The notes under the pieces were generated by a model that ran no database searches, was not told the origin of the DNA, and saw only the letters and a program-made list of their open reading frames with translations. Below, piece by piece: positions 5,709 through 53,708 of a stretch of 64,000 bases of DNA. This DNA comes from Candidatus Omnitrophota bacterium (GTDB lineage: Bacteria > Omnitrophota > Gorgyraeia > 2-02-FULL-51-18): the NCBI GenBank assembly GCA_945877765.1, contig CAMDWQ010000007.1:23024-87023 (forward strand), given 5' to 3'. Both the position numbers and the translations under genes were made by a program. Every line of letters begins with the position of its first letter. The stretch's first letter is position 1.

Positions 5709-5713
5709 TGTTA

Positions 5714-5845
5714 TTTCCCCTCCTTTCGAAGGAGGGGTGGTTGCGAAGCAACCGGGGTGGTTGAAGCTCTATTGTCCATGTACACATGTGTAAACCCCCA
5801 CAACCCCTCCGCCTTCGGCACCTCCCCTTCGTAAGGGGAGGAAAA
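5714..5845. repeat. Family A repeat, copy A2
   Basis: tttcccctcctttcgaaggaggggtgg ... caacccctccgccttcggcacctccccttcgtaaggggagg. Fills the glmS-rsmI intergenic space from stop codon to RBS. Confidence 0.85.
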
Positions 5846-5870
5846 CACGTTAATAGGAAAGTAAATTTCA

Positions 5871-6617
5871 ATGAGTGGAATTTTATATTTAGTGGCGACG
5901 CCGATTGGTAATCTTGGCGATCTTTCTATTCGCGCGATTGAGACACTCAAGAAAGTGGATCTCATCGCATGCGAAGATACCCGCCACTCCAAAGTGCTTT
6001 TGACGCATTATGGCATCAACAAGCCGTTGGTGAGCTACTTTGATTTTTCGGAGAAGCAGAAGACGCCCTATTTGGTGGAAAAAATGAAAAATGGCGCTAG
6101 TATCGCGCTCATTTCTGATGCGGGGACGCCGGGGATTGCGGATCCGGGGTATCGGCTGATTCGGGAGGCGATAGCTCAAGGGGTACGTGTGGAGTCTTTG
6201 CCGGGAGCGGCGGCGTTTTTGACGGCGCTTACGGTGTCGGGACTGCCTCCGGACCGATTTATTTTTGAGGGATTTTTTCCGGTCAAGGACGGCCAGAAAA
6301 AGAAACTTCTTTTGTCGCTGGCTCAAGAAGAAAGAACCGTTATTTTTTACGAATCACCGCATCGGCTGCTTAAGACACTCGAGGCTATTCGTGAAACGCT
6401 GGGCGATATACAACTAGTGGTTGCGCGGGAGCTTACAAAGAAATTTGAGGAAGTGTTGAGGGGACCCGTTAGCGGCGCTATTGAGCATTTCTCCTCGAAA
6501 AAGATATTGGGAGAATTTGTGATATTATGGTCTGCGAAACCTAATTTGTCATTCCCGCGAAAGCGGGAATCTGCGTCCAGTGATGATCCTCGCTTCCGCG
6601 AGGATGACAAGGGTTAA
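5871..6617 (+). CDS. rsmI: 16S rRNA (cytidine1402-2'-O)-methyltransferase
   Basis: MSGILYLVATPIGNLGDLSIRAIETLKKVDLIACEDTRHS tetrapyrrole-methylase fold. The last ~22 codons are encoded by a Family C repeat. Confidence 0.85.
   Translation: MSGILYLVATPIGNLGDLSIRAIETLKKVDLIACEDTRHSKVLLTHYGINKPLVSYFDFSEKQKTPYLVEKMKNGASIALISDAGTPGIADPGYRLIREAIAQGVRVESLPGAAAFLTALTVSGLPPDRFIFEGFFPVKDGQKKKLLLSLAQEERTVIFYESPHRLLKTLEAIRETLGDIQLVVARELTKKFEEVLRGPVSGAIEHFSSKKILGEFVILWSAKPNLSFPRKRESASSDDPRFREDDKG
6548..6612. repeat. Family C double-hairpin repeat, copy C1
   Basis: gtcattcccgcgaaagcgggaat + gatcctcgcttccgcgaggatgac. Overlaps the rsmI 3' end. Confidence 0.8.
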
Positions 6618-6619
6618 CA

Positions 6620-7048
6620 ATGAAAGATATCCATTTTCGCGTCTGGCATCTCCAAGAAAAAAAGATGTATTACCGCGGGTATCAGAAGTTTTTGCACGTG
6701 CTTCTTTGCGAGGATGACCACGGCGAAAATGAGGGAAAGGGGACGCCGGCCCGACGCGCCTCATATGGTGATTGTATTTTTTTGGAGAGCACAGGGCTTT
6801 TTGATCGGCGCCAGAAGGAAATTTTTGAAGGGGATATCGTCCGGGTTGGCTACAAAGACCGGGAGTTTGAGGGGATTGTTGAGGAAATTCCCGATACGTT
6901 TGGCGCGGCCAAGGTGCATCCGCTGCACAATATTTTAAAGAAAAATGGAATTTTGGGTTATCCAGAAAATCTGAATTTAGAAGTGCTTGGCAATGAATAC
7001 GAGCAGAATGTGTCGTCCCCGAAATCTTTTATCGGGGATCAAACCTGA
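6620..7048 (+). CDS. YopX-family phage-derived protein
   Basis: MKDIHFRVWHLQEKKMYY ... STGLFDRRQKEIFEGDIV ... EVLGNEYEQN matches the YopX (PF09643) pattern (F-R-A-W-D...M-Y, STGL-D-N-G-IYEGDI, EVIGNIYEN). The last ~11 codons lie in repeat B1. Confidence 0.5.
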   Translation: MKDIHFRVWHLQEKKMYYRGYQKFLHVLLCEDDHGENEGKGTPARRASYGDCIFLESTGLFDRRQKEIFEGDIVRVGYKDREFEGIVEEIPDTFGAAKVHPLHNILKKNGILGYPENLNLEVLGNEYEQNVSSPKSFIGDQT

Positions 7049-9850: not shown

Positions 9851-9997
9851 TGTCATTCCCGAAAGTATTTGTCGGGAATCAAACCTGTACATGATCCCCG
9901 ATTAAAGATCTCGGGGATGACACTGGGTGGTGTTCGGGGATGACACTGGGTGGTGTTCGGGGATGACACTGGGTGGTGTTCAAGGATGACAAATAGG
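9851..9997. repeat. Family B repeat copy B2 followed by a 23-nt tandem repeat (~3.5 units)
   Basis: gtcattcccgaaagtatttgtcgggaatcaaacctgtacatgatccccgattaaagatctcggggatgacac, then (ggggatgacactgggtggtgttc)x3 + degenerate aaggatgacaaatagg. Confidence 0.85.
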
Positions 9998-11979: not shown

Positions 11980-12863
11980 AAACAAAGCCTTACCGCATCG
12001 TTTTTTATTACCTCTTGATTCTAATCCGCAGTTTCTTTTATTTATTTCCCTACCAGGTAGGTATTTGGGTGGGCAGGTTGTTGGGCCGTGTTGTTTTTTA
12101 CCTTCTTGCGAAAGAACGAAACAAGACGATTAGTAACCTGAGATTGGCATTCGGTGAGCAACCGTCTGATCAAGAGCTTCGCCGTATCGCGCGGGCGGTG
12201 TTTGAAAATTATGGCATGATTGCCGCGGAGACCCAGTTGGTTGGCAAAATCATTCCCTGTCTTGATCGATGGGTGGATATTGAGGGTAAGGAAATACTGG
12301 ATGAGGCCTTGAAAAAAGGCCATGGGGTCATTGGCCTGATCGCGCACTTCGGTGACTGGGAGTTGATGGGCGGGTACTTGGCAATGAAAGGCTATCCTAT
12401 GGTGGCTGTCGCACGGAAAATTTATTATGAAAAATACAACCAGCTTTTAATTCAGGCGCGTGAAAGAATGAGCATTCGAGTAATCTATCGCGATCGTTCT
12501 CCCAGGGAAATGCTGCGCACCCTAAAAAATAACGATGTGCTTGTCATCGCGGCCGACCAGGATGTAGATTCTTTAGACGGCGTGTTTGTTAATTTTTTTA
12601 GCCGACCCGCTTACACGCCAGTTGCGCCGGTAAGGTTTTCAATGGCGGCGGGGGCACCGATTATTCCTGCTTTTATTATACGAGAAGGTTTTAAGCACCG
12701 GATCATCATTGAAAAACCCATCGAACTTACATTTACGGGAAACAAAGAAACGGATTTAGTGGCCAACACCCAAAAATGGGTGTCATTGCAGGAACAGTAT
12801 ATCCGACAATATCCCCATCTATGGGTGTGGAATCATAAGCGGTGGAGAACTAAAAGTGTTTAA
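11976..12863 (+). CDS. lysophospholipid/lipid A (Kdo2-lipid IVA) acyltransferase, LpxL/HtrB family
   Basis: N-terminal TM, HX4D-type acyltransferase region (LIAHFGDWEL), C-terminal YPHLWVWNHKRWRTK. Start chosen at ATG overlapping the aguA stop (ATGA); the track ORF from 11916 would overlap aguA. Confidence 0.65.
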   Translation: MKTKPYRIVFYYLLILIRSFFYLFPYQVGIWVGRLLGRVVFYLLAKERNKTISNLRLAFGEQPSDQELRRIARAVFENYGMIAAETQLVGKIIPCLDRWVDIEGKEILDEALKKGHGVIGLIAHFGDWELMGGYLAMKGYPMVAVARKIYYEKYNQLLIQARERMSIRVIYRDRSPREMLRTLKNNDVLVIAADQDVDSLDGVFVNFFSRPAYTPVAPVRFSMAAGAPIIPAFIIREGFKHRIIIEKPIELTFTGNKETDLVANTQKWVSLQEQYIRQYPHLWVWNHKRWRTKSV

Positions 12864-12972
12864 CCACCCCGTCGCCTTCAGCGCCACCCCTCCTTCGTAA
12901 GGAGGGGAAAGAGAGCTCAATTTCCTCCCCTTACGAAGGGGAGGTGCCGAAGGCGGAGGGGTTGTAGGGTTT
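12864..12972. repeat. Family A repeat, copy A3 (reverse orientation)
   Basis: ccaccccgtcgccttcagcgccacccctccttcgtaaggagggg ... cctccccttacgaaggggaggtgccgaaggcggaggggttgtagg. Confidence 0.85.
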
Positions 12973-13132: not shown

Positions 13133-16100
13133 TTGTCTCATCAAATAATAAGCTTTCAAAAAGCGAAACTCAAAAATATGGGCCAAAAAAACCGCATCCA
13201 ATCATCCCCTAGGATTTACCCGCGGATTCTTCGTGTGATTTCTACCTGTCTTGTGCTTGCATTTACATTCAATGATTTTGCTCATGCGGCACCAGCGGAG
13301 TTGTTCACGCCGCGGATGGTGTTGAACCCGTCCAAGATCGAGTTTTCAGGCTCATTTGCTAAAGTAAGCGATGTATTTCAGGGTAAGAGCCCGCGTCTTT
13401 TGATCCACATTCAAGATGCGCACACCAACACCGGCGCTGAAAAAAATATTTCACAGACGCTGGAGGAATTGATCACCCGGTATCACATTAAAACAGTTTT
13501 CATGGAAGGCGGCACGCGGGATGATTCTCTGGATTTTCTGCGTCCGCTGGCTCCTCAAGAAGTGCGCGAGAAGATCGCGAAAAAATATCTGATGCAGGGT
13601 GAGCTAAACGGCGCCGAATATCTGAGCCTGGCTTCGGACCATTCCTTTAAGATTCTGGGTGTCGAAGACGCGTCGCTTTATCACCAAAATTTAAAGACGT
13701 ACGCCGCCGTCACCAAGCGCCGCGAGGCTGTCCTTTCCTATATAGGACAGATGGACCAGCGGGTTGATAGTATGAAGCGCCGCATTTACCCCAAAGCGCT
13801 CGTTGAGTTTGATGATTTTCTACAAAAATACAAAAATAAAGAAAAAAGCTTCACTGATTATTATACCGTGCTTTCTTCGACGGCCGTGCGTTACGGGATC
13901 AGTCTTCTGGGCTTTCCTCATTTTCTCTCACTGAAGGACCTCCAAGCCAAAGAAGACAGGATTGATTTTAAGAAAGCCAATACCGAACAAGCGGCGCTGG
14001 CAGGCCTTGTGTCCGACAAGACGCTGGCCGCTCACGCCGAAAAGATGAAATCCGGCAATTTAAATCCGCTGCCATTTTACGAGGCTGTTCTCGCCGAAGC
14101 CCATGCCAAGAAAATCAACTTGGGAGACTATCCCAACTTTTCGGCCTACGTAGACTATCTGCGAGATTATTCCAAGATTAAAATGGAGCGCCTCTTAAAC
14201 GAGACACGCATCTTAGAAGAAGTAATTTATCAGAAAGCGCTCCCCGAAGAAGATGTGTTTTACCTCTATCGGCTCGACAAGTACCTCAGCGTCTTAAAGA
14301 GCCTCTTTTCCCTGCAGGCGACGCCCCAGGAGTTTGACGACTATTCACTCCTGCAAAAGGACATGCGCTTTAACACCGCGGTCTGCCTGGCCTATATCAA
14401 CCGTAAATTATATGACCTAGGCAATTACGCCGATGTCGTGGCCACCGATTCTATTTTGGATGAGAACAAAAAAGAAATTGAAGATTTCTACCGCGTGACC
14501 GGCGACCGCGATGAGGTATTTTTAAACAAGTCGCTTGCTGAAATGGAAAAAAACAATATTTCCGCTGCCGTCCTCATCACCGGCGGCTATCACACTCCAA
14601 GCCTTCGTCAAAAAATGAAAGAACGCAACATCTCCTACGCCGTCGTGACTCCCGCGGTTACCGAAGAAACCAATCTCGTGCGTTATGAAAAAATTCTTCT
14701 TTCCCGCGCGGGTCTTGAGGCACAACTTCCTTTAGACAAAAAAGAAATCGTCAGTGGCCGCCAGGATTTTATCAACCCCACGCTTAACGCGGAAGTTCCG
14801 AGGACTCCGATCGTTTCAAAAATTAGTAGTGAATTCCAAATGCTGGGATTTCAACCCAGTACACCTAACAAAACTTTAAATGCTGCTAGGCTAGCTAAGG
14901 GAAAAATAACCCATCAAGATGCGTCCGCCGCGCGGTTGAGCGAGGCTGCTTCCTCTCAATCCCCAACAAAGCCGGCAAAGTTTTCTTTAAAAAGGTGGCT
15001 GTTAATTGGGGTCATCTCGTTTGCAATTTTGCAGATACTTCTTGTAAATGGTTCGCTCTACGTTGCGCTTTCAATACCACCAAGCGGCATGGTCACTGAT
15101 GCGCAGGAGGTCAATGGAGTGAGATCTTTAGGCCCTGTAAACACTATTCCTTACACAAGTATTCCTGCCCCTGGGTTTTTTGTTCGTGTGTTCAAATTTT
15201 TTGGGGGCACTACTAAGGGGGGGAATCCGGTTAAGTTTGAATATACTCCTAATGGTGAGAAGGTTACCCTTCCGGACGGGGAAGTGATATTAATAGTTCC
15301 AAAAAATACTTCAGCGCCTGAAAATGAGGAGGTAACCTCCGAAGCTTTAGGAGACGGTGCACGGTTGGCCAACTACACCCCGGTTTTGGGTATTGTGGCG
15401 GTAGTGGTGTTTATAGCCTCTGTCTTGCAAAATATCTCACGTAAAGCAGATCCAAATTACGTCCCAACGCCGGCAGAGGTGATTGAAGAACAAGCCATGA
15501 TAAACGATATTCGGAGTAGGGCCTTGGAGGTAGCAGGAAAAATTAGGCATGGGATTGGGGACATAGCCAGTGGCAGTATTTCTAAAAATGACAATTCCGT
15601 AAAAATTGCTTCTATATTATTTGAAGGGCTTGACCAAAAGGAAAAAAATATTTTTTTCTCTACTCTGATTGAGATCTTGCGTGAAGTGATCAATCCTGCT
15701 CATCAGTATCATGAAGACACACCAAGAATTTTATCTGTGCTGGCAGATTGGGGTAGGCTCAATCCAGAGAATTTGCAATTTTTAATTGCCCAGTTAAACA
15801 AAGAAGAAAACCCAGGTGTTGCGGAAATTCTCAAGACAGCTATCGGGGCACGAGAAATTACTACTAAACAAAATCGCGAACTTTCTCCTGAAGAGCGCCG
15901 TCAATTCGGGCTTTCTGAAAAACCATTTGATCCTAGAGATGCCAGCAAAGTCCTATTTAATTATAAGAGTGGTCCAATAGATAACGAGATGAAAGAAGGT
16001 AGTATTTTTGGATCATTTCCGTGGATTAGCGAGACTGAAGTAAAAAATACAGAAAAACCAGAGCCATCCGGGGCAGTGGATCCATCCGGAGGGGCGCGGT

Positions 16101-18919
16101 TGGCGGCGAGTCGGACCAAAACGATGAAAAAGTCAGACACGGGGCGACTTCAAAATTCAGCCGATGCCATGGTCAAGGATATTCGTAAGATGGATGGGCA
16201 TTTGCTTGGTCTTGCAAAATTAGTCCAGCGCCAAATGGGTCTTGAGTCCGACAATCCAAAAAAATCTCTGTTAATGATTCCTAATTCAATCCAGAAGCCT
16301 AATTTGAAAAGCTTGGCGGGGAAGCGCGCGGTTTATGCTGATCTTGGCGGCTCGACGCTTCACATGGGAGAGATTGAAATTGGTGTCGATGGAACGATCA
16401 CAGTGTTGTGGGAAAAGCCTATGCCTCTAGGGGATCATGTCTCCGAGGGGGGTTCTAAACTTTTTGATTTCATGGCTCAGCAGATCCTTCAGACGGTCCG
16501 CGAAAAGTCAGGTGATCTTGAACAGCCAAAGATCATGGGTTTTACGTTCTCATTTCCTCATCAAAATGGTGTTGTTATCAAAAAATCCAGCACCAAAGGG
16601 TTTAATTTTAGTGACATCATCGGCCAAAATGTCATGGAGCTAATGAATGAGCGTCTTAAAAAAAGCAGTGCTAAATATGGTATTAAACAACTTGAAGTCG
16701 TTGCAGTTACCAATGATACCGAGGGTGCCATGGTTCAGGGAATGGTGCGCTTCAAAAATGCCCTTGTCAGCGTCATCGCCGGGTCCGGATTTAACACGGC
16801 TGTCTGGTGGCTTAATCAGATGTTTAATATGGAGTCAGGGGGCCTTCGTATTCGGAACAATTGGCTGGGTAAGCATGATTTGAAGGTGATGAAGCGTGGT
16901 GCCGAAGAGCTGATTTCCGGACATTTTTTGGGTCTTCAGCTTCGCGCGCGGCTTTTAGATCTGGTAAGAAACTACGGTCTTTTTGGCGGAAAAGTGACTA
17001 GGGCTCTTAGGCTAAGAAAAGGGATTTCATCCGAAATCGTGACGAGTATTTATGAGGCTCGCAGCAATAGGAAAATACAAGAAATTTTGAGCACTATCGG
17101 AATAACTAACGTAAGTAATCAAGACGCTCAGATCGTCAAGGAAATCTCAAGCGCTCTTGTAGAGCGTTCGTTTAAGGTTAACGCAGGGATCATTGCGGGA
17201 TCATTAGCTAAAACAAAGACAACCAAAAGGGCCCAGGTAGCTGTTGATGGTGCCTTATGGAAAATACCTGCTTACACAAGAGGAGTGCAGAGACAGCTTA
17301 ATCTACTTTTACAGGAACTTAATTTACCCAGAGCCCAAATCAGAAGGGTCAATAATGCTTCCGGAATTGGATCGGCGGTCACGGCGTTAGTTGTTAATTC
17401 TCAACAAGACTCCGCCGCTCGGCTTGCTACTAAAACAGAAGAAACGAATCCCCCATTAACGGTTTACTACGTTGGCCGCGATGATCGATCAATCCAAATA
17501 AGTCATGGAGTGGGATTTGGGACTCAGGTGTACTATAGAGATGTTCCTGAGTCACTGAATTTAAAAAATTTAAATAGACAACAGGCTATGGGGGCACTGG
17601 TACAGATCGCCGATGCACTTGATGCTCAACTTCCCGGAGATAAGCATGATTTACGTTTTCGTCCTAGTAAGGATGATTCGGCTAGAGCAGCAAATAAAGA
17701 TATTCGCCAAAAAATATCAAATGTAGTGCAAGGATTAAAATTTGATATTCCCGGTGCAGCCCGGCTTGCTACGAGCCCGGCGAAGTCAGTTGTGGATGAT
17801 AAGTCAGCTGTTTTAAATGTGCTTCAGGACAGCCTTGCCACCCAAGGTTCTCGTTTATCATCAGAGAGTCATTTTGGTGGATCTCAAGCTGAATTAATTC
17901 CAGACACCACCCAAGTCGCAGCGCGTCTTGCGGCTGCTAATGAGAGTAAAATTTCCCTAGCAAAGCGCCTGCAGTATCCCTTTCTTTTATTGTTAACGTC
18001 GCTAAGCATCGTGACGTTTGATTTTGCCCAGGAGAACGGACAAGGATCAATAGCGATTGATATTCAAGTGCAAGACGCTGACCCCGCTGTTTCATCAATT
18101 AGGTTACATCCGAGGCAGTTTAAGGCTGCTATAGCGGGTGAACTGATCAATTTTATCAACACCGCAGCTTTTGAAGCCGCTGGCAATGCGCGCAATCTGT
18201 TAAGCCAAAATGTTCCCGCATGGAGCTATGAGGATGCGGTATGGAATCCTCTGATGAAAGCGCCCCTGACTAACGCGAGCGGTATTCAAGCGGTGGAAGT
18301 ATTTCTTCCCGCGACGATTTTAAAGAATGTGGCAGATCTTCGTCAGGCGCTTCAAAAGGCCAGCATGGTGTCTAAGAGCCGCGGGGTTCACATCGTGATC
18401 AATATTCTTTCTAAGGAGGGAAACCTTACGCCGTCCGAAAGAACTCTAATTGACAAAGAAATTTCCGCCATAGGGAATTCTCGTTTAGGGGTAGATTATC
18501 GCTCGGTCAGCGAGGGACAGACGCTATCAGAAGCTGCCCTGGAAAAACTTGCCGAGCAGCAAGAAGGCCTGGAAAAATTAAAGCAAGGGACTACTAAAGT
18601 AATGTTAATCGCCAGCTCTTCTAACGAGCAGGAGATTTTGAGTCAGATTGGAACGATTGATGCCGTTTACCGGGATAGCATTTTTTCGGCGGGCGCCGAT
18701 ATTCTGTCCAACGAACAGGCAAATCTTGGCGCGTTTTCTCTGGCTGAGATGATGGCTGTTTCACTTTACCAGGCCATGGGACTTGAGACGATGCTACCCT
18801 CCATCCTGAATTTACGATCTGTTATCGTGTCTGGGCGCCGTTTGTTTATTTTTACCTTCAATCTCAACCAGGAACTGGTTTTACTTCGCCTGGCACGCCA
18901 AGCCGAAATCGCCGCTTAA
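13133..18919 (+). CDS. giant (1928 aa) secreted/membrane modular protein: N-terminal signal peptide, Tiki/ChaN-like(?) domain, 2 TM helices, helical module, complete eukaryote-type hexokinase domain (aa ~1060-1425), and two C-terminal modules of unknown function
   Basis: Single uninterrupted ORF. Signal peptide ...VLAFTFNDFAHA/AP. TM helices at nt ~14990-15065 and ~15380-15425. Hexokinase hallmarks: ADLGGSTLHMGEIEIG, MGFTFSFPHQ, STKGFNFSD, VAVTNDTEGAMV, VIAGSGFNTAVW, VAVDGALWKIPAYTR...ASGIGSAVTA. Seven [G/A]ARLA motifs. An alternative start MGQKN lies at 13178. Confidence 0.8.
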   Translation: MSHQIISFQKAKLKNMGQKNRIQSSPRIYPRILRVISTCLVLAFTFNDFAHAAPAELFTPRMVLNPSKIEFSGSFAKVSDVFQGKSPRLLIHIQDAHTNTGAEKNISQTLEELITRYHIKTVFMEGGTRDDSLDFLRPLAPQEVREKIAKKYLMQGELNGAEYLSLASDHSFKILGVEDASLYHQNLKTYAAVTKRREAVLSYIGQMDQRVDSMKRRIYPKALVEFDDFLQKYKNKEKSFTDYYTVLSSTAVRYGISLLGFPHFLSLKDLQAKEDRIDFKKANTEQAALAGLVSDKTLAAHAEKMKSGNLNPLPFYEAVLAEAHAKKINLGDYPNFSAYVDYLRDYSKIKMERLLNETRILEEVIYQKALPEEDVFYLYRLDKYLSVLKSLFSLQATPQEFDDYSLLQKDMRFNTAVCLAYINRKLYDLGNYADVVATDSILDENKKEIEDFYRVTGDRDEVFLNKSLAEMEKNNISAAVLITGGYHTPSLRQKMKERNISYAVVTPAVTEETNLVRYEKILLSRAGLEAQLPLDKKEIVSGRQDFINPTLNAEVPRTPIVSKISSEFQMLGFQPSTPNKTLNAARLAKGKITHQDASAARLSEAASSQSPTKPAKFSLKRWLLIGVISFAILQILLVNGSLYVALSIPPSGMVTDAQEVNGVRSLGPVNTIPYTSIPAPGFFVRVFKFFGGTTKGGNPVKFEYTPNGEKVTLPDGEVILIVPKNTSAPENEEVTSEALGDGARLANYTPVLGIVAVVVFIASVLQNISRKADPNYVPTPAEVIEEQAMINDIRSRALEVAGKIRHGIGDIASGSISKNDNSVKIASILFEGLDQKEKNIFFSTLIEILREVINPAHQYHEDTPRILSVLADWGRLNPENLQFLIAQLNKEENPGVAEILKTAIGAREITTKQNRELSPEERRQFGLSEKPFDPRDASKVLFNYKSGPIDNEMKEGSIFGSFPWISETEVKNTEKPEPSGAVDPSGGARLAASRTKTMKKSDTGRLQNSADAMVKDIRKMDGHLLGLAKLVQRQMGLESDNPKKSLLMIPNSIQKPNLKSLAGKRAVYADLGGSTLHMGEIEIGVDGTITVLWEKPMPLGDHVSEGGSKLFDFMAQQILQTVREKSGDLEQPKIMGFTFSFPHQNGVVIKKSSTKGFNFSDIIGQNVMELMNERLKKSSAKYGIKQLEVVAVTNDTEGAMVQGMVRFKNALVSVIAGSGFNTAVWWLNQMFNMESGGLRIRNNWLGKHDLKVMKRGAEELISGHFLGLQLRARLLDLVRNYGLFGGKVTRALRLRKGISSEIVTSIYEARSNRKIQEILSTIGITNVSNQDAQIVKEISSALVERSFKVNAGIIAGSLAKTKTTKRAQVAVDGALWKIPAYTRGVQRQLNLLLQELNLPRAQIRRVNNASGIGSAVTALVVNSQQDSAARLATKTEETNPPLTVYYVGRDDRSIQISHGVGFGTQVYYRDVPESLNLKNLNRQQAMGALVQIADALDAQLPGDKHDLRFRPSKDDSARAANKDIRQKISNVVQGLKFDIPGAARLATSPAKSVVDDKSAVLNVLQDSLATQGSRLSSESHFGGSQAELIPDTTQVAARLAAANESKISLAKRLQYPFLLLLTSLSIVTFDFAQENGQGSIAIDIQVQDADPAVSSIRLHPRQFKAAIAGELINFINTAAFEAAGNARNLLSQNVPAWSYEDAVWNPLMKAPLTNASGIQAVEVFLPATILKNVADLRQALQKASMVSKSRGVHIVINILSKEGNLTPSERTLIDKEISAIGNSRLGVDYRSVSEGQTLSEAALEKLAEQQEGLEKLKQGTTKVMLIASSSNEQEILSQIGTIDAVYRDSIFSAGADILSNEQANLGAFSLAEMMAVSLYQAMGLETMLPSILNLRSVIVSGRRLFIFTFNLNQELVLLRLARQAEIAA

Positions 18920-21954: not shown

Positions 21955-21955
21955 T

Positions 21956-22075
21956 TTTCCCCTCCTCACGAAGGAGGGGTGGAGTCGAAGGCGCCGGGGT
22001 GGTTGAAGGGTTGTGCTTCACAAAAACCTTACAACCCCTCCGCCTTCGGCACCTCCCCTTCGAAAGGGGAGGAAA
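21956..22075. repeat. Family A repeat, copy A4
   Basis: Lies between the purB stop and the purS RBS; the track ORF 21979.. is repeat read-through into purS. Confidence 0.85.
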
Positions 22076-22086
22076 AAAAAGAGGAC

Positions 22087-22329
22087 ATGATGAAAGCAAA
22101 AGTTTACGTGACGCTTAGGAAATCAGTGTTTGATCCGCAGGGCAAAGCGGTGCAGGAAGCGCTTGGGTCGATGGGATTTAATGAGGTGCAGAGCGTACGC
22201 ATGGGCAAATACATCGAGCTGGATCTTGGCTCCACCGAAAAGTCTCAAGCGGAACAAAAAATTAAGGTGATGTGCGAGAAACTTTTGACCAACACGGTGA
22301 TTGAGGATTATAGGTACGAATTAAATTAG
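22087..22329 (+). CDS. purS: phosphoribosylformylglycinamidine synthase subunit PurS
   Basis: 80 aa MMKAKVYVTLRKSVFDPQGKAVQEALGSMGF...; own RBS agagga. Confidence 0.85.
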   Translation: MMKAKVYVTLRKSVFDPQGKAVQEALGSMGFNEVQSVRMGKYIELDLGSTEKSQAEQKIKVMCEKLLTNTVIEDYRYELN

Positions 22330-22333
22330 AACT

Positions 22334-22455
22334 TTTTCCTCCCCTTTCGAAGGGGAGGTGCCGAAGGCAGAGGGGTTGTAAGGTGTGTGTATAAAGTGTG
22401 ACGCATCAACCGCCCCGTCGCCTCGGCGCCACCCCTCCTTCGTAAGGAGGGGAAA
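22334..22455. repeat. Family A repeat, copy A5 (reverse orientation)
   Basis: cctcccctttcgaaggggaggtgccgaaggcagaggggttgtaagg ... ccgccccgtcgcctcggcgccacccctccttcgtaaggagggg. Confidence 0.85.
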
Positions 22456-22490
22456 AGGTCGCAAGATTGTGGAATGGAAGTGAGAGAACT

Positions 22491-23169: not shown

Positions 23170-25449
23170 ATGACCACACAGACGTTAGAAATCACACCAG
23201 ACATTATTTCCAAACACGGAATCACTCCTTCCGAATACGGCGAAATTAAAAATATCCTTGGCCGTGCGCCCAATCTCACTGAGCTTGGGATTTTTAGCGT
23301 CATGTGGAGCGAGCATTGCTCGTACAAAAATTCGAAGAATGCTCTCAAACTTTTACCCAAAGACGGCAAGCGCATGCTCGTCAAGGCGGGTGAAGAAAAC
23401 GCGGGTGTTGTCGATATCGGCGATGGCTATGTAATTGCTTTTAAGGTGGAGTCGCACAATCACCCGTCGGCCATTGAGCCGTTTCAGGGGGCGGCAACCG
23501 GTGTTGGGGGAATTTTAAGAGATATTTTTACGATGGGAGCACGTCCTATTGTGGCAATGAATTCGCTACGGTTTGGAAAGTTAGATCCTCGCTTTCGCGA
23601 GGATGACACAAAAAATGTCATTCCCGCGGACGCGGGAATCAGCACCAAAAGACTATTTGCCGGCGTGGTTTCCGGCATCGCGCATTACGGCAACTGTTTT
23701 GGCGTGCCGACCATAGGAGGCGAAGTTTATTTTGATGAAAGCTATGAGGGAAATCCTCTGGTCAATGCGTTTGCCCTGGGCTTGGCAAAAAAAGAAGAGA
23801 TCGTCAAAGCCAAAGCCGAAGGTCTAGGAAATCCCGTATTTTATCTGGGGGCATCGACCGGCCGTGACGGCATGGGCGGCGCAAGCTTTGCCTCTAAAGA
23901 TCTCACCGAAGAATCGGAAAAAGATCGTCCCGCTGTACAGGTCGGCGACCCATTTATGGAAAAATTACTTCTGGAAGCGGTTCTCGAACTTTTAAAGTCG
24001 GGGTCGGTTGTAGGGATTCAGGATATGGGCGCGGCAGGCCTTACTTGCTCCACTTGCGAGACCGCTTCGCGCGGAGATGTGGGTATCGAAATCGATGTCG
24101 CCAAAGTTCCTCAACGCGAAATTGGCATGGCGCCTTATGAAATTATGCTTTCCGAATCCCAGGAGCGCATGCTCGTCATTATCCAAAAAGGTAAAGAGCA
24201 TATCGCTAAACAAATTTTTAAAAAGTGGGACCTGCATGCCGAAGAAATCGGTTTTGTCACCGGCGACGGCCTAATGCGCGTCAAAGAAAATGGCGTGACG
24301 GTTGCTGAAATACCGGCCAAGCGTCTTGCGGATGACGCGCCGCTTTACACTCGTGAAGAAAGAGAGCCCGCTTATTACAAAAAGGCTCAAGCTTTTGACG
24401 TGTCAAGCCTTGGCTCGGCCGGAGATTTAAATGCGGTTCTCTTGAAGCTCTTAGATTCTCCCACGATTGCCAGTAAGCAGTGGGTCTATGAGCAGTACGA
24501 CCACATGGTTCGTACCAATACCACAGTGCTTCCCGGCTCCGATGCGTCCGTGGTGCGCGTAAAAGGCACCAACAAGTCGCTGGCGATTTCACTCGACTGC
24601 AATTCAACGTATTGTTATCTCGACCCTTATGAGGGCGGCAAAATCGCCGTGGCGGAGTCGGCGCGTAACGTGGTCTGTTCGGGCGCCCGGCCGCTTTCAA
24701 TCTCTAACTGCCTTAATTTTGGTAATCCCCATAATCCTGAAATTTTCTGGCAGTTAAAAAAATGCATTGAGGGAATTCGCGACGCGTGTTTGGCGTTTGA
24801 TACGCCGGTATCGGGGGGGAATGTTTCATTGTATAATCAGAACCCTCAGGGCGCTGTGGATCCGACACCGGTCATTGCGATGGTGGGACTGCTTGAGGGC
24901 CGGGAGCCGGTTACTTCTTTTTTCAAAAAAGAAGGCGATGTAATTATTCTTTTGGGGACCAATCGCCAAGAACTGGGCGGCTCGGAATTTTTAAAGACAA
25001 TTTTTAATGTCAAATCAGGCAAAGCGCCTCATTTGGATTTGAAAGAAGCCTCCGATTTGATTGAATTGATGCTAAAGTTGTCCGAAAAGAATTTCTTAAA
25101 ATCCGCCCATGATTGTGCGGAAGGCGGATTGGCAGTGGCATTGGCAGAGTCTTGCATTATCGCCAAGGGCAAGGAGCTTGGAGCCTCGGTCAAAGTGGGC
25201 GCGGCTAGCCTTACTCAGGAAGCCCTTTTATTTGGCGAGTCGCAGTCGCGTATTGTGATTTCGGTGGACGCGGCTCATTTGAAAGAAGTAGAAAATCTCA
25301 TCCAATCTTTTGCATTCAAGTATGAAGTGATCGGAAAAGTTGCGGGTTGTGAACTTAAAATTAATGAACTAATTCAAGTGCCTGTGCCGGTGCTCAGCCA
25401 CACTTGGAGAAATGCCATCACCGGAAGAATGAGCGCAACCCATGAGTGA
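23170..25449 (+). CDS. purL: phosphoribosylformylglycinamidine synthase subunit PurL, carrying an in-frame ~17-aa insertion derived from a Family C repeat
   Basis: 759 aa, typical small-PurL motifs ([39 protein letters not shown]). Between SLRFG and VVSGIAHYG sits [24 protein letters not shown], encoded by repeat copy C2. Confidence 0.9.
23585..23641. repeat. Family C repeat, copy C2 (inside purL coding sequence, in frame)
   Basis: gatcctcgctttcgcgaggatgac acaaaaaat gtcattcccgcggacgcgggaatc; same two hairpins as C1/C3 in swapped order. Confidence 0.8.
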
Positions 25450-29384: not shown

Positions 29385-29447
29385 GTCATTCCCGCGCAAG
29401 CGGGAATCCGTACTTAAAACAGATCCTCGCTTTCGCGAGGATGACAA
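29385..29447. repeat. Family C repeat, copy C3
   Basis: gtcattcccgcgcaagcgggaatc...gatcctcgctttcgcgaggatgacaaagg. Its 3' end supplies the AAGGAG Shine-Dalgarno of purE. Confidence 0.8.
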
Positions 29448-36289: not shown

Positions 36290-36385
36290 ATGCCTTGCGG
36301 TAAAAAAAGAAAACGTCATAAGATGGCAGTACATAAAAGAAAAAAACGCCGTCGTCGCGATAGACATAAGAAGAACTCGAAGTAA
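36290..36385 (+). CDS. unannotated 31-aa highly basic ORF, candidate bS22-like small ribosomal protein
   Basis: AGGAG SD 7 nt upstream of ATG. MPCGKKRKRHKMAVHKRKKRRRRDRHKKNSK (21/31 K/R/H) resembles bS22/mS38 KRRKRM-KKKHRK peptides. Below the ORF-track size cutoff. Confidence 0.4.
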   Translation: MPCGKKRKRHKMAVHKRKKRRRRDRHKKNSK

Positions 36386-36387
36386 CC

Positions 36388-36512
36388 CTTTCCTCCCCTT
36401 TCGAAGGGGAGGTGCCGAAGGCGGAGGGGTTGTAAGGTGATACATAGGCTGTTGTACTGCGTCAACCACCCCGTCGCTTCGGCGACACCCCTCCTTCGTA
36501 AGGAGGGGAAAA
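36388..36512. repeat. Family A repeat, copy A6 (reverse orientation)
   Basis: cctcccctttcgaaggggaggtgccgaaggcggaggggttgtaagg ... ccaccccgtcgcttcggcgacacccctccttcgtaaggagggg. Confidence 0.85.
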
Positions 36513-36576
36513 TTGCAAGGCGTGACACTTTTACGAGTGAATGTTCGTCTAAATGAAATAGATCAAGGAGCCTAAA

Positions 36577-38211
36577 GTGTTCTGGAGAAAATTTAAAGTA
36601 TTTTGGTGGAATCACTGGGTCAAGTTTATGGTGCTTGGCTGGTTGGTTTTCATTTTCTGGTTTCCCGCAGTCTCTCTAGGTTCTCTTGATAAGTATCAGC
36701 GCGACTACATGGTCGCCTTTTTGTCTACCACGGGTTTACAGGCGACGGTTAGTGCGGTGGTATTTGTATGCCTATATTCGTGGGTTCTCCAGGGTGGACT
36801 TCAGAAACTTCGCAACGCTAAAGTCAAAAGCGATGCCGTCAACATTAAGTGGAAAGATGTCATTGGTATTGATTCCGCCAAGGCTGAAGCCAAAGAAATC
36901 GTTGAACTGATCAAAGACCGTGCGCGCATCAAAAAAATCGGTGGCAACATTATTCGCGGCATGCTCATGATGGGGCCTCCTGGCTGCGGAAAAACCTATC
37001 TTGCCAAGGCGATGGCCACGGAAGCAGGCGTACCTTTTATCTCCATGTCCGGCTCTGAATTTACAGAAATGTATGTCGGTGTCGGTGCTTCCCGTGTGCG
37101 TCAACTGTTTAACAAAGCCCGTCGTTTGGCCTATGCCGATGGAGGATGCATCATATTTATCGATGAAATTGACGCGATTGGCCACAAGCGTGTGCATGAC
37201 ACAGGATTTGGCGGTATGCAGGAAAGAAATACGACGCTTAACCAGCTTCTGGTCGAAATGGACGGCCTGGGAGCGAAGTCGGAAAACGTCGTAATTATCG
37301 GTGCGACAAACGCGCCCGAAAGCATCATGGACGATGCGTTATTGAGGCCAGGGCGTTTTGACCGCAAAATTTTTGTCAGTAAGCCCTCGATGATTGAAAG
37401 AGAAGAGCTTTTCCGTTTCTATCTTTCCAAGGTCAAATGCGAAGACAATATCGATATCGGCAAAGTGGCCCGCAAAGCGGTCGGATCAAGTCCTGCGGAT
37501 ATTGCCAATCTCACCAAAGAAGCGGCATTGATCGCTACTCGCAATAAAGTGGACAAGATCAGTGAAGACCATTTGTCCGAAGCGATGGAAAGAATATATT
37601 TAGGACTTAAGAGCAACATCCGCTTGACCGAAAAAGATAAAATGATGACGGCCTATCACGAGACGGGTCACCTGATCGTGCTTTATCTTTTACATCCGAC
37701 AGATGATGTCTTTAAAGCAACGATTATCCCGCGCGGAAACGCACTGGGTCTTGTTTCGCATCTGCCGCCGGATGATAAGTATTCGGTGGACCGCAACGAG
37801 CTTTTGGCCAATATCAAAGTATCTTTGGCTGGCTACGTGGCTGAAAAAATGAAATTTAACACAACCACCAGCGGTGTTCACAGCGATTTTGAAAAAGCCA
37901 TGTGGACGGCGCATCGCATGGTGTGGGATCTGGGAATGGGCAAGAGCAATTGGGTGGGTAATTATAGTTCTATTCCTGCCAACCAGTTGTCCGACGACAT
38001 CAAGCAAAAACTCAATCAAGAAACTCAAGAAATTGTTCAAGACTGCATGAAAGATGTTGAAAAGCTCTTAAGAGATGAAAATGTAATTTTTGAGCGTTTT
38101 GCCCAGGAGCTTATCAAGAAAGAAGAGCTCGATTATGATGACATCGAAGCCATTTTCAAAGAATACGGGAAATCAAATCCCCGTATCACGTCTAAATTCA
38201 TTCCGCAATAA
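36577..38211 (+). CDS. ftsH: FtsH-family AAA+ zinc metalloprotease (short paralog with minimal periplasmic loop)
   Basis: Walker A GPPGCGKTYLAKA, SRH, M41 HETGHLIV (HEXXH); only 544 aa, with two closely spaced N-terminal TM helices. Confidence 0.8.
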   Translation: MFWRKFKVFWWNHWVKFMVLGWLVFIFWFPAVSLGSLDKYQRDYMVAFLSTTGLQATVSAVVFVCLYSWVLQGGLQKLRNAKVKSDAVNIKWKDVIGIDSAKAEAKEIVELIKDRARIKKIGGNIIRGMLMMGPPGCGKTYLAKAMATEAGVPFISMSGSEFTEMYVGVGASRVRQLFNKARRLAYADGGCIIFIDEIDAIGHKRVHDTGFGGMQERNTTLNQLLVEMDGLGAKSENVVIIGATNAPESIMDDALLRPGRFDRKIFVSKPSMIEREELFRFYLSKVKCEDNIDIGKVARKAVGSSPADIANLTKEAALIATRNKVDKISEDHLSEAMERIYLGLKSNIRLTEKDKMMTAYHETGHLIVLYLLHPTDDVFKATIIPRGNALGLVSHLPPDDKYSVDRNELLANIKVSLAGYVAEKMKFNTTTSGVHSDFEKAMWTAHRMVWDLGMGKSNWVGNYSSIPANQLSDDIKQKLNQETQEIVQDCMKDVEKLLRDENVIFERFAQELIKKEELDYDDIEAIFKEYGKSNPRITSKFIPQ

Positions 38212-40200: not shown

Positions 40201-40271
40201 TGCCCTGTGGTGTAACGGTAGCACACGGCCCTTTGGAGGCCAGAGTCATGGTTCGAATCCATGCGGGGCAG
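40201..40271 (+). tRNA. tRNA-Gln (anticodon UUG)
   Basis: Cloverleaf folds by hand: acceptor TGCCCTG/CGGGGCA with U1-A72 and discriminator G73 (Gln identity), U8, D-stem GTGT/GCAC with G18G19, anticodon loop C-U-UUG-G-A, T-arm CATGG-TTCGAAT-CCATG. No encoded CCA. Confidence 0.8.
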
Positions 40272-41361: not shown

Positions 41362-42657
41362 ATGCAAAAATGTTCGTTTTGTCAAAAAGCGCTCAAGGGT
41401 CATGAGAAAATTTTCTCAGGACCGGATGTGCTTATTTGCGAAGACTGCGTGAAGTTTTGCCATGACACGCTCAATCGAACCGGTGCCATGCCATCCAAGG
41501 ACGCCAAAGAGTCAAAAGATCCTAAGGATTTAAAGGTAGCTCCACCGCTTCCTACTTTGAAGCTTGAAGAACTTCCCAAGCCGGTGGATATTAAAAAAAC
41601 TTTGGATGATTACGTCATCGGTCAGGAAGACACCAAGAAAAAACTTTCGGTGAGCGTCTACAATCACTATAAGAGAATTTTATCCCGCACCGATACCCAG
41701 GAAGTGGAGCTTGAAAAATCCAATGTTCTTTTGATTGGGCCAACGGGTTGCGGAAAAACACTTTTGGCGCGGACGATGGCAAGAATTTTAAAAGTGCCTT
41801 TTGCGATTTGCGATGCCACGACGTTGACGCAGGCAGGCTATGTCGGGGACGATGTGGAGAATGTGATCCAACGGCTTTTGCAGGATGCCAAGTATGACAT
41901 CCCGCGCGCGGAAATGGGAATTGTTTATATTGATGAAATCGACAAAATTGGAAAGACTTCTGAGAATGTCTCTATTACCCGCGATGTTTCAGGAGAGGGT
42001 GTCCAGCAAGCGCTTTTGAAAATTCTTGAAGGCACCAAAGCGAGCGTGCCTCCCCAAGGCGGCCGCAAACATCCTCAAGCAGAAAATCTTTCGGTGGATA
42101 CGACAAATATTCTTTTTATTTGCGGAGGGACTTTTAGCTCACTAGATGAAATTATCAAACGCCGGCTGGGCAAAGGCGAGATTGGTTTTCGCGGTACCGG
42201 CAAAGCGCACCCAGTTTATCAGGTTCAAGACTCCTCACAATCACTGATACGTTTAGTGGAGACGGAAGATTTGGTGAAGTTTGGGATCATCCCCGAATTT
42301 ATCGGGCGCTTTCCTATTGTCTCTACTCTCGACAAGCTGGGCGAGAAGGAACTTCTGGATGTCTTGAGTAAACCCAAAAATGCATTGGTCAAACAATTTC
42401 AGAAACTTTTTGAGATTGAAGGGGTGCGCCTGACCTTGACCCCAGAAGCGCTCCTAGAAATCGTCAAAGAAGCAGCCAAAAAAGGCACCGGCGCCAGGGG
42501 ATTAAGAGCTATTTTAGAGAGCGTGATGCTGGACGTGATGTACGAGCTGCCTTCTCTTGAGGGAATTCAAGAATGTGTCGTGGAGCGGCAAACCGTTTTA
42601 AATCGTGAATATCCGCAGTTATTGGATAAAAAAGGCGAGGCCCGCAAAATTGCGTAA
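41362..42657 (+). CDS. clpX: ATP-dependent Clp protease ATP-binding subunit ClpX
   Basis: N-terminal C4 zinc finger (CSFCQK...CEDC), Walker [13 protein letters not shown] pore loop; no clpP adjacent. Confidence 0.93.
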
Positions 42658-43939
42658 AGCAGCCATTATCTTGGCGGCGGGAAAAGGGACACGGCTTCGG
42701 TCAATACTTCCTAAAGCGCTGCATCCGATTTGTGGAAAACCGATGCTCGGGTATTTGGTGGAGCGTGCGCGCGTTGCCGGTTGTGAAAAAATTGTGGTGG
42801 TTGGCGGATACAAGATCGAATTGGTGCGGGAATATTTGAAGTCACTGGGACTGGGCGCTTCTTTGGTTTGCGTCGAGCAGAAAGAGCAGCTGGGAAGCGG
42901 ACATGCGGTGCAGCAGGCGGCACGGGCGCTTAAAAATTTCCAAGGCGCGGTGTTTGTATTTTATTGCGATACGCCCCTTATTAGTCAGGCGACCGTCAAA
43001 GAGCTTTTTAAAAATTATTCGTCCGAAAAAACTGATTGCACGCTCTTATCGGTGGAATTAAAACAGCCTTTTGGTTATGGGCGGGTCCAGCGAGGACCCA
43101 GCGCGGAAGTGGTGAAGATCATCGAGGAGAACGACGCGACTAGTGATGAGAAAAATATCCGTGAAATCAATGTCGGTTGTTACGTATTTTCAGCGGTGCG
43201 CCTTTTTGAGGGGCTTAAAAAAATCAAAAAGAACCCGCAGAAAAAAGAATACTACCTGACGGACATCGTTGAGATTTTTTCTCAAAGCGGCAAAGTCGGT
43301 GCGGTGATCACGGCGGACGCGAAGGAAGTTTTGGGAGTTAATTCTCAAAAAGATCTCGCCCGGGTCGAAGAAATTGCGCAAAAAAGGATTTTGGACGGCT
43401 GGATGGACAAGGGAGTTCGCATCCGTTGCCCTAAAACCGTGACCATTGACGCGGACGTGAGGATAGGGCAAGATACTACGGTTATGCCCCATACGGTCCT
43501 TGAGCAAGGCTCGGTCATAGGCCGGGGCTGTAAGCTGGGGCCTTTCGCGCGTATCCGTGGCAACTCCCGGGTTGGCAATCACGTCGTGGTCGGAAATTTT
43601 GTTGAACTGGTACGCACTACCCTTGGGGATCATACCCAAGTGAAGCATCTTTCCTATTTGGGAGATGCCTCGGTTGGCGCCTACGTCAATATTGGCGCGG
43701 GGACGATTACCGCCAATTATGACGGGAAGAATAAACACCAGACGGTGATTAGGGATCGAGCGAGTGTTGGTAGCGGCACGATTTTGGTGGCGCCGGTGGT
43801 GGTAGGGCGCGCGGCGGTGACCGGAGCGGGTGCGGTGGTGACCAGGCGCAATAATGTGCCCGATCGCGCCTTGGTAGTGGGAGTGCCTGCGCGGATTATT
43901 ACTAAACGTCATCTTAAACGTCATCCCCGAAATCTTTAA
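42650..43939 (+). CDS. glmU: bifunctional UDP-N-acetylglucosamine pyrophosphorylase / glucosamine-1-phosphate N-acetyltransferase
   Basis: TTG start giving [16 protein letters not shown], overlapping the clpX stop; C-terminal left-handed beta-helix hexapeptides. The last ~8 codons (RHPRNL) lie in repeat B7. Confidence 0.88.
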
Positions 43940-45927: not shown

Positions 45928-45944
45928 TTTAGAGAGGTGTTCTT

Positions 45945-46526
45945 ATTTATAAGAAATTTGTCATCGGCATAGGAAATGATGATAATAAATATACAGGGAC
46001 AAGACATAATATAGGCTTTGCAATTGTAGATTCTCTCTGGGCAAAGAGGGATTCTCAATTAGCTTCTAAATGGAAAGATGCAAAACATCTCAAAGCATGG
46101 TTGGCTGGATTTAATCAAGATGTTGCGTTGATAAAGCCGCAATATTTTGTCAATAATACCGGCGGTGCGGTTGTAGCTTTGGTTGAGAATTATAAGCCCG
46201 ACTTCAAAAACATTTTATTTGTTTACGATGATGTCAATCTTGAGTTTGGAAAATTAAGGTTACGTTCATCGGGAAGCGCTGGCGGACATCACGGACTTGA
46301 GTCAGTTATCAATGACTTGAATTCAGAAGAGTTTCCCAGACTAAGAATTGGTATTAAAAATGAAAATATGCCGCAAGATTTGACGAATTTTGTTTTGGCA
46401 AAATTTTCTGAAAAAGAACAAAATGAATACCCAGAAATTATTAATAAAGCGGTATCGGTTTGTGAAGATTGGATCAACAATGGTTTTGACGCTGCTGTAA
46501 AAAAGCTGAGTCAATTACAGGGATAA
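45945..46526 (+). CDS. pth: peptidyl-tRNA hydrolase (no canonical start codon; possible ATT start or 5'-disrupted)
   Basis: Frame translates (I)YKKFVIGIGNDDNKYTGTRHNIGF...DDVNLEFGKLRLRSSGSAGGHHGLES... after an in-frame TAG at ~45930. The first ATG/GTG/TTG is at 46101 (the track ORF), far inside the conserved N-terminus. Repeat B9 abuts the 5' end. Confidence 0.7.
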   Translation: MYKKFVIGIGNDDNKYTGTRHNIGFAIVDSLWAKRDSQLASKWKDAKHLKAWLAGFNQDVALIKPQYFVNNTGGAVVALVENYKPDFKNILFVYDDVNLEFGKLRLRSSGSAGGHHGLESVINDLNSEEFPRLRIGIKNENMPQDLTNFVLAKFSEKEQNEYPEIINKAVSVCEDWINNGFDAAVKKLSQLQG

Positions 46527-47447: not shown

Positions 47448-47708
47448 GTGTTTATTAAAAAGAAAATCGTTAAGAAAAAAGTTGATCCAAAAAAGAAGTT
47501 TATTAAGAAAAAAATATGCAAGTTTAAGCCCGAAGAAATCGAAACAATCGATTATAAGGACGTCAACCGCCTTCGCTATTTCATTACTGAGCGCGGAAAA
47601 ATCATCCCCGGTCGCATTTCAGGCGCGGGTGCTAAATCTCAAAGGTATTTGACTCGCCAGATTAAAAGAGCGCGGCAGATTGCGCTTTTACCGTTTGTGG
47701 CGGAGTAA
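47448..47708 (+). CDS. rpsR: 30S ribosomal protein bS18 (with Lys-rich N-terminal extension)
   Basis: ...[50 protein letters not shown]; GTG start. Confidence 0.9.
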
Positions 47709-47715
47709 GATTCAG

Positions 47716-47765
47716 ACCTTACAACCCCTCTGCCTTCGGCACCTCCCCTTCGAAAGGGGAGGAAA
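47716..47765. repeat. Family A half-repeat, copy A7
   Basis: ccttacaacccctctgccttcggcacctccccttcgaaaggggagg (second hairpin module only). Confidence 0.75.
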
Positions 47766-47783
47766 AATTGGGCTGGTTAATTC

Positions 47784-53576: not shown

Positions 53577-53584
53577 CATAACCA

Positions 53585-53707
53585 TTTCCCCTCCTTTCGA
53601 AGGAGGGGTGGCGCCGAAGGCGACGGGGTGGTTGAACACGCTACGTTTCATACATAAACCCCCGCAACCCCTCCGCCTCCGGCACCTCCCCTTCGAAAGG
53701 GGAGGAA
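53585..53707. repeat. Family A repeat, copy A8
   Basis: ttcccctcctttcgaaggaggggtggcgccgaaggcgacggggtgg...caacccctccgcctccggcacctccccttcgaaaggggagg. The element ends 2 nt before the lpxC ATG, so its terminal GGAGG acts as the SD. Confidence 0.85.
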
Positions 53708-53708
53708 A

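Follow-up and report, generated by a model that had tools for sequence, protein, structure and literature searches.

The 64,000-nucleotide (nt) stretch of contig CAMDWQ010000007.1 examined here (the window, with positions counted from its first letter) carries a purB-purS-purQ-purL-purF-purM-purD-purE cluster, and the purL gene of this cluster contains, in frame, two short hairpins of a repeat that is dispersed elsewhere in the window. Records of close homologues of the encoded PurL bear the source name Candidatus Omnitrophota. Precomputed Pfam annotation divides the protein into an FGAR-AT linker domain (PF18072) and two AIRS/AIRS_C halves (PF00586, PF02769), and its residues 15-731 match the PurL of Thermus thermophilus (3VIU) with an E value of 9e-189.

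Between the blocks SLRFG and VVSGIAHYG of this protein lies an expanded loop, whose coding sequence includes two hairpin modules, A and B, separated by a short spacer (Table 1). Each module is 24 nt long, or eight codons, and consists of a perfect 8-bp stem closed by a 4-nt loop. The two GTCAT heads face inward, toward the spacer. The pair as a whole is a 57-nt unit (19 codons), located 415 nt into the gene, and is free of stop codons in four of its six frames; the canonical doublet found between genes, whose 61 nt are not divisible by three, would cause a frameshift. An initial annotation of the sequence had already described a hairpin repeat in frame within purL. Its coordinates, 23585-23641, were one base off, and of its loop lengths (about 29 amino acids (aa) here and about 12 in orthologs, for some 17 extra codons) the first stands; the modal length elsewhere is 13, and the excess 16 codons, or two modules of 24 nt.

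Table 1. Features of the window discussed in the text, and inserts at the corresponding loop of PurL in other Omnitrophota. Positions are those of the window; ORF, open reading frame.
Feature	Position	Strand	Remarks
purL (FGAM synthase subunit II, small PurL)	23170-25449	+	759-aa intact ORF
Expanded loop coding region, K137-G165 (29 aa)	23578-23664	+	between predicted strand 125-135 and helix 155-177
Hairpin module A, GATCCTCGCTTTCGCGAGGATGAC = GATCCTCGC-TTTC-GCGAGGATGAC	23584-23607	+ (GTCAT head on minus strand)	encodes D139-D146, DPRFREDD
Spacer, ACAAAAAAT, 9 nt	23608-23616	+	encodes T147-N149, TKN
Hairpin module B, GTCATTCCCGCGGACGCGGGAATC = GTCATTCCCGC-GGAC-GCGGGAATC	23617-23640	+ (head on plus strand)	encodes V150-I157, VIPADAGI
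Canonical heads-outward doublet (B, 13-nt spacer, A; 61 nt)	6548-6608	+	within 3' end of rsmI ORF
Canonical heads-outward doublet (B, 13-nt spacer, A; 61 nt)	29385-29445	+	purD-purE spacer; closest relative of purL module A
Third composite family, copies	474-600, 5713-5847, 12858-12971, 21955-22078, 22330-22456, 36384-36512, 47702-47768, 53584-53711
PurL loop insert, L089 (P0056)			29-aa loop; GTAGGGGCGCCCCTTGTGGGCGCCC-AATCAC-GGGCGGGGACAAGCCCCGCCCCTAC, classical GTAG-headed inverted REP doublet
PurL loop insert, L090 (P0019)			36-aa loop; two copies of AATGTCCACCCCCGGGGTGGACA, i.e. AATGTCCACCCC(C)GGGGTGGACA
PurL loop insert, L091 (P0032)			24-aa loop; three tandem GGGACTGTCCC units, also elsewhere in the L091 locus
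PurL loop insert, L093 (P0009)			23-aa loop; CTCACACC-TCCG-GGTGTGAG hairpin

Both modules recur in the window. Module A is matched at 24 of 24 positions at 29422-29445, and at 23 of 24 at 6585-6608; module B is matched at 22 of 24 positions at both 6548-6571 and 29385-29408, the two differences falling in the hairpin loop in each case. With up to three mismatches allowed, each 24-mer is found three times (with 0, 1, and 0 mismatches for A and 0, 2, and 2 for B), and neither is found even once in 100 dinucleotide-preserving shuffles. The match of the purL modules to the dispersed copies is far beyond chance. For module A the identity extends to one flanking base on each side of the copy in the purD-purE spacer, 5.8 kb downstream.

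The arrangement of the modules is another matter. At both other sites the GTCATTCCC-hairpin comes first, then a 13-nt spacer and the GATCCTC-hairpin, and the GTCAT heads face outward; in purL the two hairpins are swapped, with inward-facing heads and a spacer of 9 nt. The three sites had initially been described as copies of one two-hairpin repeat, which holds for the modules, shared by all three, and fails for the composite unit. The copy described as following rsmI is present, inside the 3' end of the rsmI ORF (5871-6617); that described as preceding purE is indeed a doublet in the purD-purE spacer, with its unit ending at 29445 and its modules arranged otherwise than in purL. The 13-nt spacers of these two doublets are unrelated in sequence, which suggests that the conserved entity is the 24-nt module rather than the whole doublet.

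The repeat family is well represented in the window, with 30 GTCATYCYCG heads, 27 full modules (all of them GTCAT-headed), and 14 heads-outward doublets. Three pairs are of the short-loop type, called Family C in the initial annotation; a long-loop type (GTCATCCCCGAAATCTTTAATCGGGGATCA) is present as 11 doublets plus solo copies. Each doublet pairs one C-variant with one T-variant stem. Apart from the purL pair, the only one inside a real gene, family members are extragenic or at the 3' ends of ORFs. Occupancy of at least one site differs among relatives: the purD-purE spacer, with its Family C doublet in the window, is an empty 13-15 nt in L082 and L092; in L081 it is occupied by a long-loop doublet, and in L091 by another inverted-repeat element with a GTCAT head. 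Since L081, a sister species, also carries the long-loop type, the superfamily must be older than the split between the two. No direct repeat that could be a target-site duplication was seen beside the copies at purL (flanks AAGTTA/AGCACC), 6548 (CTAATTT/AAGGGT), or 29385 (GTAAGT/AAAGGA), and the initial label of "MITE-like" (for miniature inverted-repeat transposable elements) fits less well than a likeness to repetitive extragenic palindromic (REP) sequences.

Repeats are known to break assemblies, and contig L081 does end inside a hairpin doublet, raising the question of whether the purL insert could be an assembly chimera, or a sign of a decaying pseudogene. Contigs as long as 87.5 kb, seven in all and produced from several samples by several assemblers, encode the identical protein; the six of them other than the window's own, which represent at least five additional samples, have the same 121-nt loop DNA; and the one further protein in the 90% cluster is identical at 758 of 759 positions, and has the insert as well. 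As was initially noted, the frame is kept: the full-length ORF retains all conserved PurL residues, and the ratio of nonsynonymous to synonymous substitution rates (dN/dS) is 0.04-0.05 against the nearest relatives (0.046 against L081, at dS of about 1.6). An AlphaFold2 model built with 105 homologues has a mean predicted local distance difference test score (pLDDT) of 87 and a predicted TM score of 0.90, and is superposed by Foldseek on 3VIU with TM scores of 0.88/0.95. Both forms of this explanation are effectively refuted, and purL is an intact gene under strong purifying selection.

In the model, the expanded loop is in the first AIRS-like half of PurL, at a strand-to-helix connection that is its most length-variable position. 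A strand at residues 125-135 is followed by a short helical turn (140-143), coil to residue 154, and a helix at 155-177, with pLDDT below 50 at residues 144-150; the initial annotation had foreseen a loop position, and the predicted low-confidence coil agrees with it. The strand runs from the conserved GARP motif (residues 123-126) to the loop; judged by the length of the modelled strand, the insert would lie tens of Angstroms from the motif. The catalytic loop described for large PurL corresponds to a different low-confidence segment, at residues ~231-260.

The corresponding loop is usually much shorter. It has 13 aa (e.g., KLEEPVSQRLLTG) in 82 of 120 close homologues (60-100% identity), and in 45 of 58 parsable PurL genes of other phyla, drawn from a species-genome collection, 50-61% identical, and used for loop statistics only. 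It is 14 residues shorter than the window's in T. thermophilus (3VIU), and almost absent in Thermotoga maritima PurL. Subtraction of both modules (16 codons) from the window loop leaves exactly 13 residues. None of the other 119 homologues in the alignment has the hairpins. In the closest relatives (L081, L082, and L092, 84-88% identical) the loop DNA contains no hairpin, no 14-mers of the repeat, and no significant fold (z = -2.3, -0.2, and +0.1). Nor is the length itself ancestral as far as was found in unrelated taxa: the only other 29-aa loop, that of P0056, holds an unrelated REP doublet. The hairpins are clearly specific to the lineage of the window. They also appear to be recent, since near-identical modules with intact stems are found in a gene whose synonymous sites are saturated with respect to the nearest relative (pS 0.66, dS ~1.6); insertion, or homogenization, must be much younger than the species split.

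The explanation we consider very probable is that two 24-nt modules of a GTCAT-headed, REP-like repeat were captured in the purL coding sequence, and are carried as a tolerated passenger in a permissive loop. The insert would then be a selfish passenger, neutral or slightly deleterious. The initial interpretation is supported in its main point, with the corrections given here for module order, codon count, rarity, and the empty site. Several points weigh against this. Neutrality is an assumption, and surface exposure of the insert is suggested by low pLDDT and length variability in a predicted structure. The purL pair is the only heads-inward arrangement among the ~15 pairs in the window. None of ~50 window genes, in the 64 kb of the genome covered, encodes a transposase (30 ORFs compared with Pfam, plus the precomputed annotation of L083). 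Most directly, no exact empty site was found: the relatives L081, L082, and L092 do lack the hairpins, as an empty site would require, and have loops of 20 aa, not 13 (e.g., KLADKNATPEELTTKRLFSG in P0002 and P0003, 86-88% identical), and in a neighbor-joining tree the window PurL is nested in a clade with 18-20-aa loops throughout. Its immediate ancestor may therefore not have had a 13-aa loop, and the event may have been a replacement rather than a pure insertion. A scan of Joint Genome Institute (JGI) metagenomes for empty, A-only, B-only, or full sites had no matches; the window organism is probably not in the collection scanned.

The same observations could be read as an old insertion renewed. 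The ancestor of the clade comprising P0001-P0005, P0013, and P0028 would have gained a B-type hairpin, which decayed to an extra 5-7 residues in the sisters and was kept, or re-homogenized by gene conversion, in the window lineage, with module A added later. The arithmetic fits (13 + 8 + 8 = 29 here, 13 + 5 to 7 = 18-20 in the clade), VIPADAGI aligns with ATPEELT and STPAEVH in the relatives, the 8-mer CCCGCGGA is shared with L092 at the aligned position, and clustering in alternating orientations is known for REP-type elements. With synonymous sites saturated, however, the 8-mer could be a chance match given the shared P-A-D/E motif; the relatives' loop DNA has neither a significant hairpin nor 14-mers of the repeat; and decay in at least five lineages, with preservation in one, is required. 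We regard this history as unlikely. The relatives' seven extra residues were also considered directly as a decayed hairpin, and set aside for want of a significant fold or repeat k-mers; that idea survives only as part of this alternative.

The window is not the only source of palindromes at this position. Four other Omnitrophota PurL genes have unrelated palindromic repeats in frame in the same loop (Table 1), and in all four the loop length is 13 plus the element. Loop DNA was obtained for a number of homologues, including P0009 and P0042, with P0006, P0061, and P0024 remaining without; wherever it was available, every insert of at least 10 residues in the loop of an Omnitrophota PurL proved to be a palindromic repeat unrelated to that of the window. 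Some of these genes contain more than one palindrome. In the L093 gene (P0009) a ~30-nt hairpin is repeated in two different loops (L093:1899-1925 and 2682-2708); both copies are read in one frame, and encode the peptide LTPPGCENG at residues ~142 and 403 (NLTPPGCENGS and ILTPPGCENGK). The P0056 gene has three palindromic inserts (L089:792-847, 1617-1661, and 2427-2485); one is the GTAG-headed REP doublet, and another a GGGACAGTCCC-type palindrome related to the triplicated L091 unit. In P0042 there is a GTAG...CTAC palindrome near residue 676. GTAG heads are present in the inserts of L089 and L094. The loop is also expanded in two Verrucomicrobia, to 61 residues in L005 and 42 in L007, and the L005 insert resembles translated repeat DNA (TPHPNPLPQ...SPDGERG...PPMGEGQGE).

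In an alignment of 120 proteins, insertions of five or more residues are most frequent in this loop (16 proteins, corresponding on the tree to some eight independent events or more), with secondary hot spots near residues 414-420, 561, 676, and 732. Over the same loci, purF, purM, and purD barely vary in length. As the elements belong to different families, and presumably arrived by different routes, their recurrence would seem to reflect tolerance of the site, where insertions survive selection, rather than targeting. A broader idea is that REP-like hairpins are a regular source of new coding sequence in the Omnitrophota and apparently in some Verrucomicrobia, with permissive loops as landing pads and the hairpins decaying into ordinary residues; the extra 5-11 residues of the sister lineages would then be fossils. 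We put this forward tentatively, as something that could be true and that we would not, on balance, expect. If it were, the evolution of loop length in conserved enzymes of the phylum would in large part be driven by selfish hairpins, in parallel to the story of the Rickettsia palindromic elements (RPE), with several element families involved.

Structured inserts could also be there because they are useful. The purL insert is predicted to fold as a single hairpin of -32.1 kcal/mol, far more stable than shuffled sequence (z = -5.5); both of its stems are perfect, with differences from other copies confined to the hairpin loop; and structured repeats occur at the same position in several lineages. 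The 57-nt structure, or the 19-residue peptide, could have been recruited to pause translation, to serve for RNA processing or stabilization within a purSQLFMDE transcript, or to give PurL a new interaction surface. A hairpin repeat copied recently would nevertheless be expected to have perfect stems, the recurring elements bear no relation to one another in sequence or size, there is no insert in most PurL proteins (those of the closest relatives among them), and the peptide is predicted to be disordered. The insert matches no Rfam family; the best score, to FtrB, is 25 bits, below the gathering score of 66. Selection for a function is in our view a very improbable reason for the insert. The -32 kcal/mol hairpin may have an effect on translation or mRNA processing, and nothing requires one.

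If the modules were captured as passengers, three histories can be envisaged. A single 57-nt heads-inward doublet could have inserted; two separate 24-nt modules could have inserted around original loop codons; or the pair could be the inner junction of a former array. The second would account for the resemblance of the spacer-encoded T-K-N to a D-K-N at a comparable position in relatives, and for the difference of 29 minus 16, or 13. The 9 nt between the modules may have belonged to the purL loop from the start, or may have come with a heads-inward doublet as its spacer.

For heads-inward pairs in general, the JGI metagenomes yielded at least 152 matches on at least 120 contigs, with spacers of 7-30 nt. 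Many of those listed are in tandem arrays where both junction types alternate. At least 28 of the listed matches have both hairpins complete with a 5-14-nt spacer (for a unit of 55-62 nt), and for at least 18 of these no outer partner lies within 70 nt, so stand-alone heads-inward doublets, with spacers of 7-14 nt, do exist in other metagenomes. As to in-frame occurrences in other genes, nearly all ORFs spanning the matches listed are translated repeat arrays; the match in an ABC-type binding protein (L206) is partial, and not a full hairpin. More broadly, GTCATTCCCGCG / GCGAGGATGAC hairpins are widespread in JGI contigs (L095-L214) of 36-69% GC content. They are often in long tandem arrays with a period of ~80-100 nt, whose translation gives spurious ORFs of 200 aa or more with IPAFAGMT, SRFRGND, and SFPRKRES motifs. 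One low-GC group has a larger conserved unit (TTTTGTATTATA...TCTTTAGCTGTA) with the heads-inward pair at its core.

The mechanism of mobilization is a matter of conjecture. Modules might spread as single-stranded hairpins, with the help of a tyrosine transposase encoded elsewhere and similar either to the REP-associated tyrosine transposases (RAYT) or to those of the IS200/IS605 type; no RAYT gene was seen within the 64-kb window. They might equally have been copied locally by recombination, which is made plausible by the identity of module A and its flanking bases to the purD-purE copy. Either suggestion is of low certainty.

Repeats of this family also extend into the 3' ends of other ORFs. 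The rsmI ORF reads through its Family C doublet, which supplies the last 23 residues and the stop codon; the TP_methylase domain of its product ends at residue 201 of 248, and the DPRFREDD frame is the same as that used in PurL. A YopX-family ORF (6620-7048), a phage-type domain amid housekeeping genes, and a GlmU-like nucleotidyltransferase/hexapeptide ORF (42605-43939) both end inside long-loop GTCAT hairpins, which supply their last codons and stops. The YopX ORF also holds an isolated 11-nt head motif, GTCATCCTCGC, on the minus strand at 6708-6718, with no partner arm. Directly after a long-loop doublet, at 9911-9991, are ~3.5 tandem copies of a 23-nt unit (TCGGGGATGACACTGGGTGGTGT), apparently an amplified hairpin tail. 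A third, unrelated composite family of ~55-135 nt combines CCCCTCC..GGAGGGG and CCTCCCC..GGGGAGG hairpins (Table 1). In the window this family takes up the spacers on both sides of purS (purB-purS and purS-purQ; 0-3 nt long in L082 and L092), and it makes spurious ORFs at 21979-22329 (in the N-terminal part) and 36316-36615.

The purine cluster varies in other ways. In the window purL and purF overlap; in several relatives they are separated by a small ORF of 80-92 aa with no Pfam match (L082:12245-12499, with equivalents in L089, L090, L093, and L094), and in L093 an ORF with a GIY-YIG domain (906-1220) is found between purQ and purL. Outside the cluster, a giant ORF at 13133-18919 encodes 1928 aa with hexokinase domains (precomputed annotation of L083). 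Relatives have proteins of 2500-3500 aa at this site with other sugar-metabolism domains (PGI and FBPase in L094), and these look like unusual fused glycolytic proteins. The pth gene (peptidyl-tRNA hydrolase), 45933-46526, is open from 45933 with a conserved N-terminus (KKFVIGIGN...), and has no ATG, GTG, or TTG before 46101; a non-canonical start, such as ATT at ~45945, seems to be used, and the mechanically called ORF lacks the first ~50 profile positions. The single tRNA gene of the window, at 40201-40271 (Rfam, 56.9 bits), is between genes for a GHMP kinase and a YhcG/DUF1016 PDDEXK nuclease.

Capture of a repeat by a coding sequence had initially been called rare. In-frame insertions, internal or at gene ends, are in fact documented for the Rickettsia palindromic elements, the Bordetella BRE, pneumococcal repeats, and the Coxiella QMITEs (PMC3184786, PMC5896051), and the PurL loop considered here has itself been hit repeatedly. 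The closest parallel is to the RPE: a dispersed palindromic repeat is both intergenic and fused in frame into conserved housekeeping genes, and the host protein still looks functional, with the insert in a tolerant region. RPE are however ~105-146 bp long (PMC3184786), as compared to 24-nt modules and a 57-nt pair here; there is no sequence relationship; the hosts are Alphaproteobacteria rather than Omnitrophota; and here several unrelated families have hit one loop of one protein across lineages. The purL insertion is the same kind of event, and its repeat is not a member of the RPE family.

As a repeat, the window family is most like the REP sequences and the doublets and mosaic elements built from them (REPIN and BIME; PMC3116915, PMC3686654, PMC3337134). 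In these too, a GC-rich palindrome of 20-40 nt is preceded by a short, conserved head at its 5' side, most copies are paired as inverted doublets able to fold into one long hairpin, and the sites are just downstream of genes; the two stem variants per doublet recall the Y and Z REPs of BIMEs. The differences are in the head, GTCAT rather than GT[AG]G (PMC3686654); in location, since REPs are extragenic by definition and the purL copy is intragenic; and in the polarity of the purL pair, opposite to that of the genome's other doublets. BRE, BOX/RUP/SPRITE, and QMITE1/2 are likewise small non-autonomous repeats that extend the 3' ends of genes or are internal to them in frame (PMC3184786, PMC5896051), and the rsmI tail and the YopX and GlmU-like ORF ends are 3' fusions of the same kind as those of QMITEs. 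All of these are nonetheless MITE-like, at ~90-400 bp, with terminal inverted repeats and target duplications; the window unit is far smaller, with no duplication visible.

In the literature consulted, no description of coding palindromes in the Omnitrophota was found. To a specialist the single purL case is unsurprising, a known phenomenon with REP-sized units in a new phylum; its interest is in showing selfish intergenic DNA within a core biosynthetic enzyme of an uncultured, little-known group, in an example that is clean, recent, and borne out by independent assemblies. It also carries a warning for annotation, as repeat-encoded peptides (e.g., VIPAxAGI) are found not only in spurious ORFs from repeat arrays but also in C-terminal tails and within real proteins. 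The recurrent colonization of one loop by multiple families across a phylum is apparently an unreported pattern, and shows repeat expansions shaping protein length. Five unrelated palindromic elements in one PurL loop, with two or three inserts in a single PurL and additional hot spots near residues 403-420, 561, 676, and 732, amount to a natural experiment, in which insert positions map the tolerance of the enzyme to insertion in a way that should be useful for protein engineering. Among the systems compared, the RPE show most nearly the same kind of event, and the REP sequences most nearly the same kind of unit.

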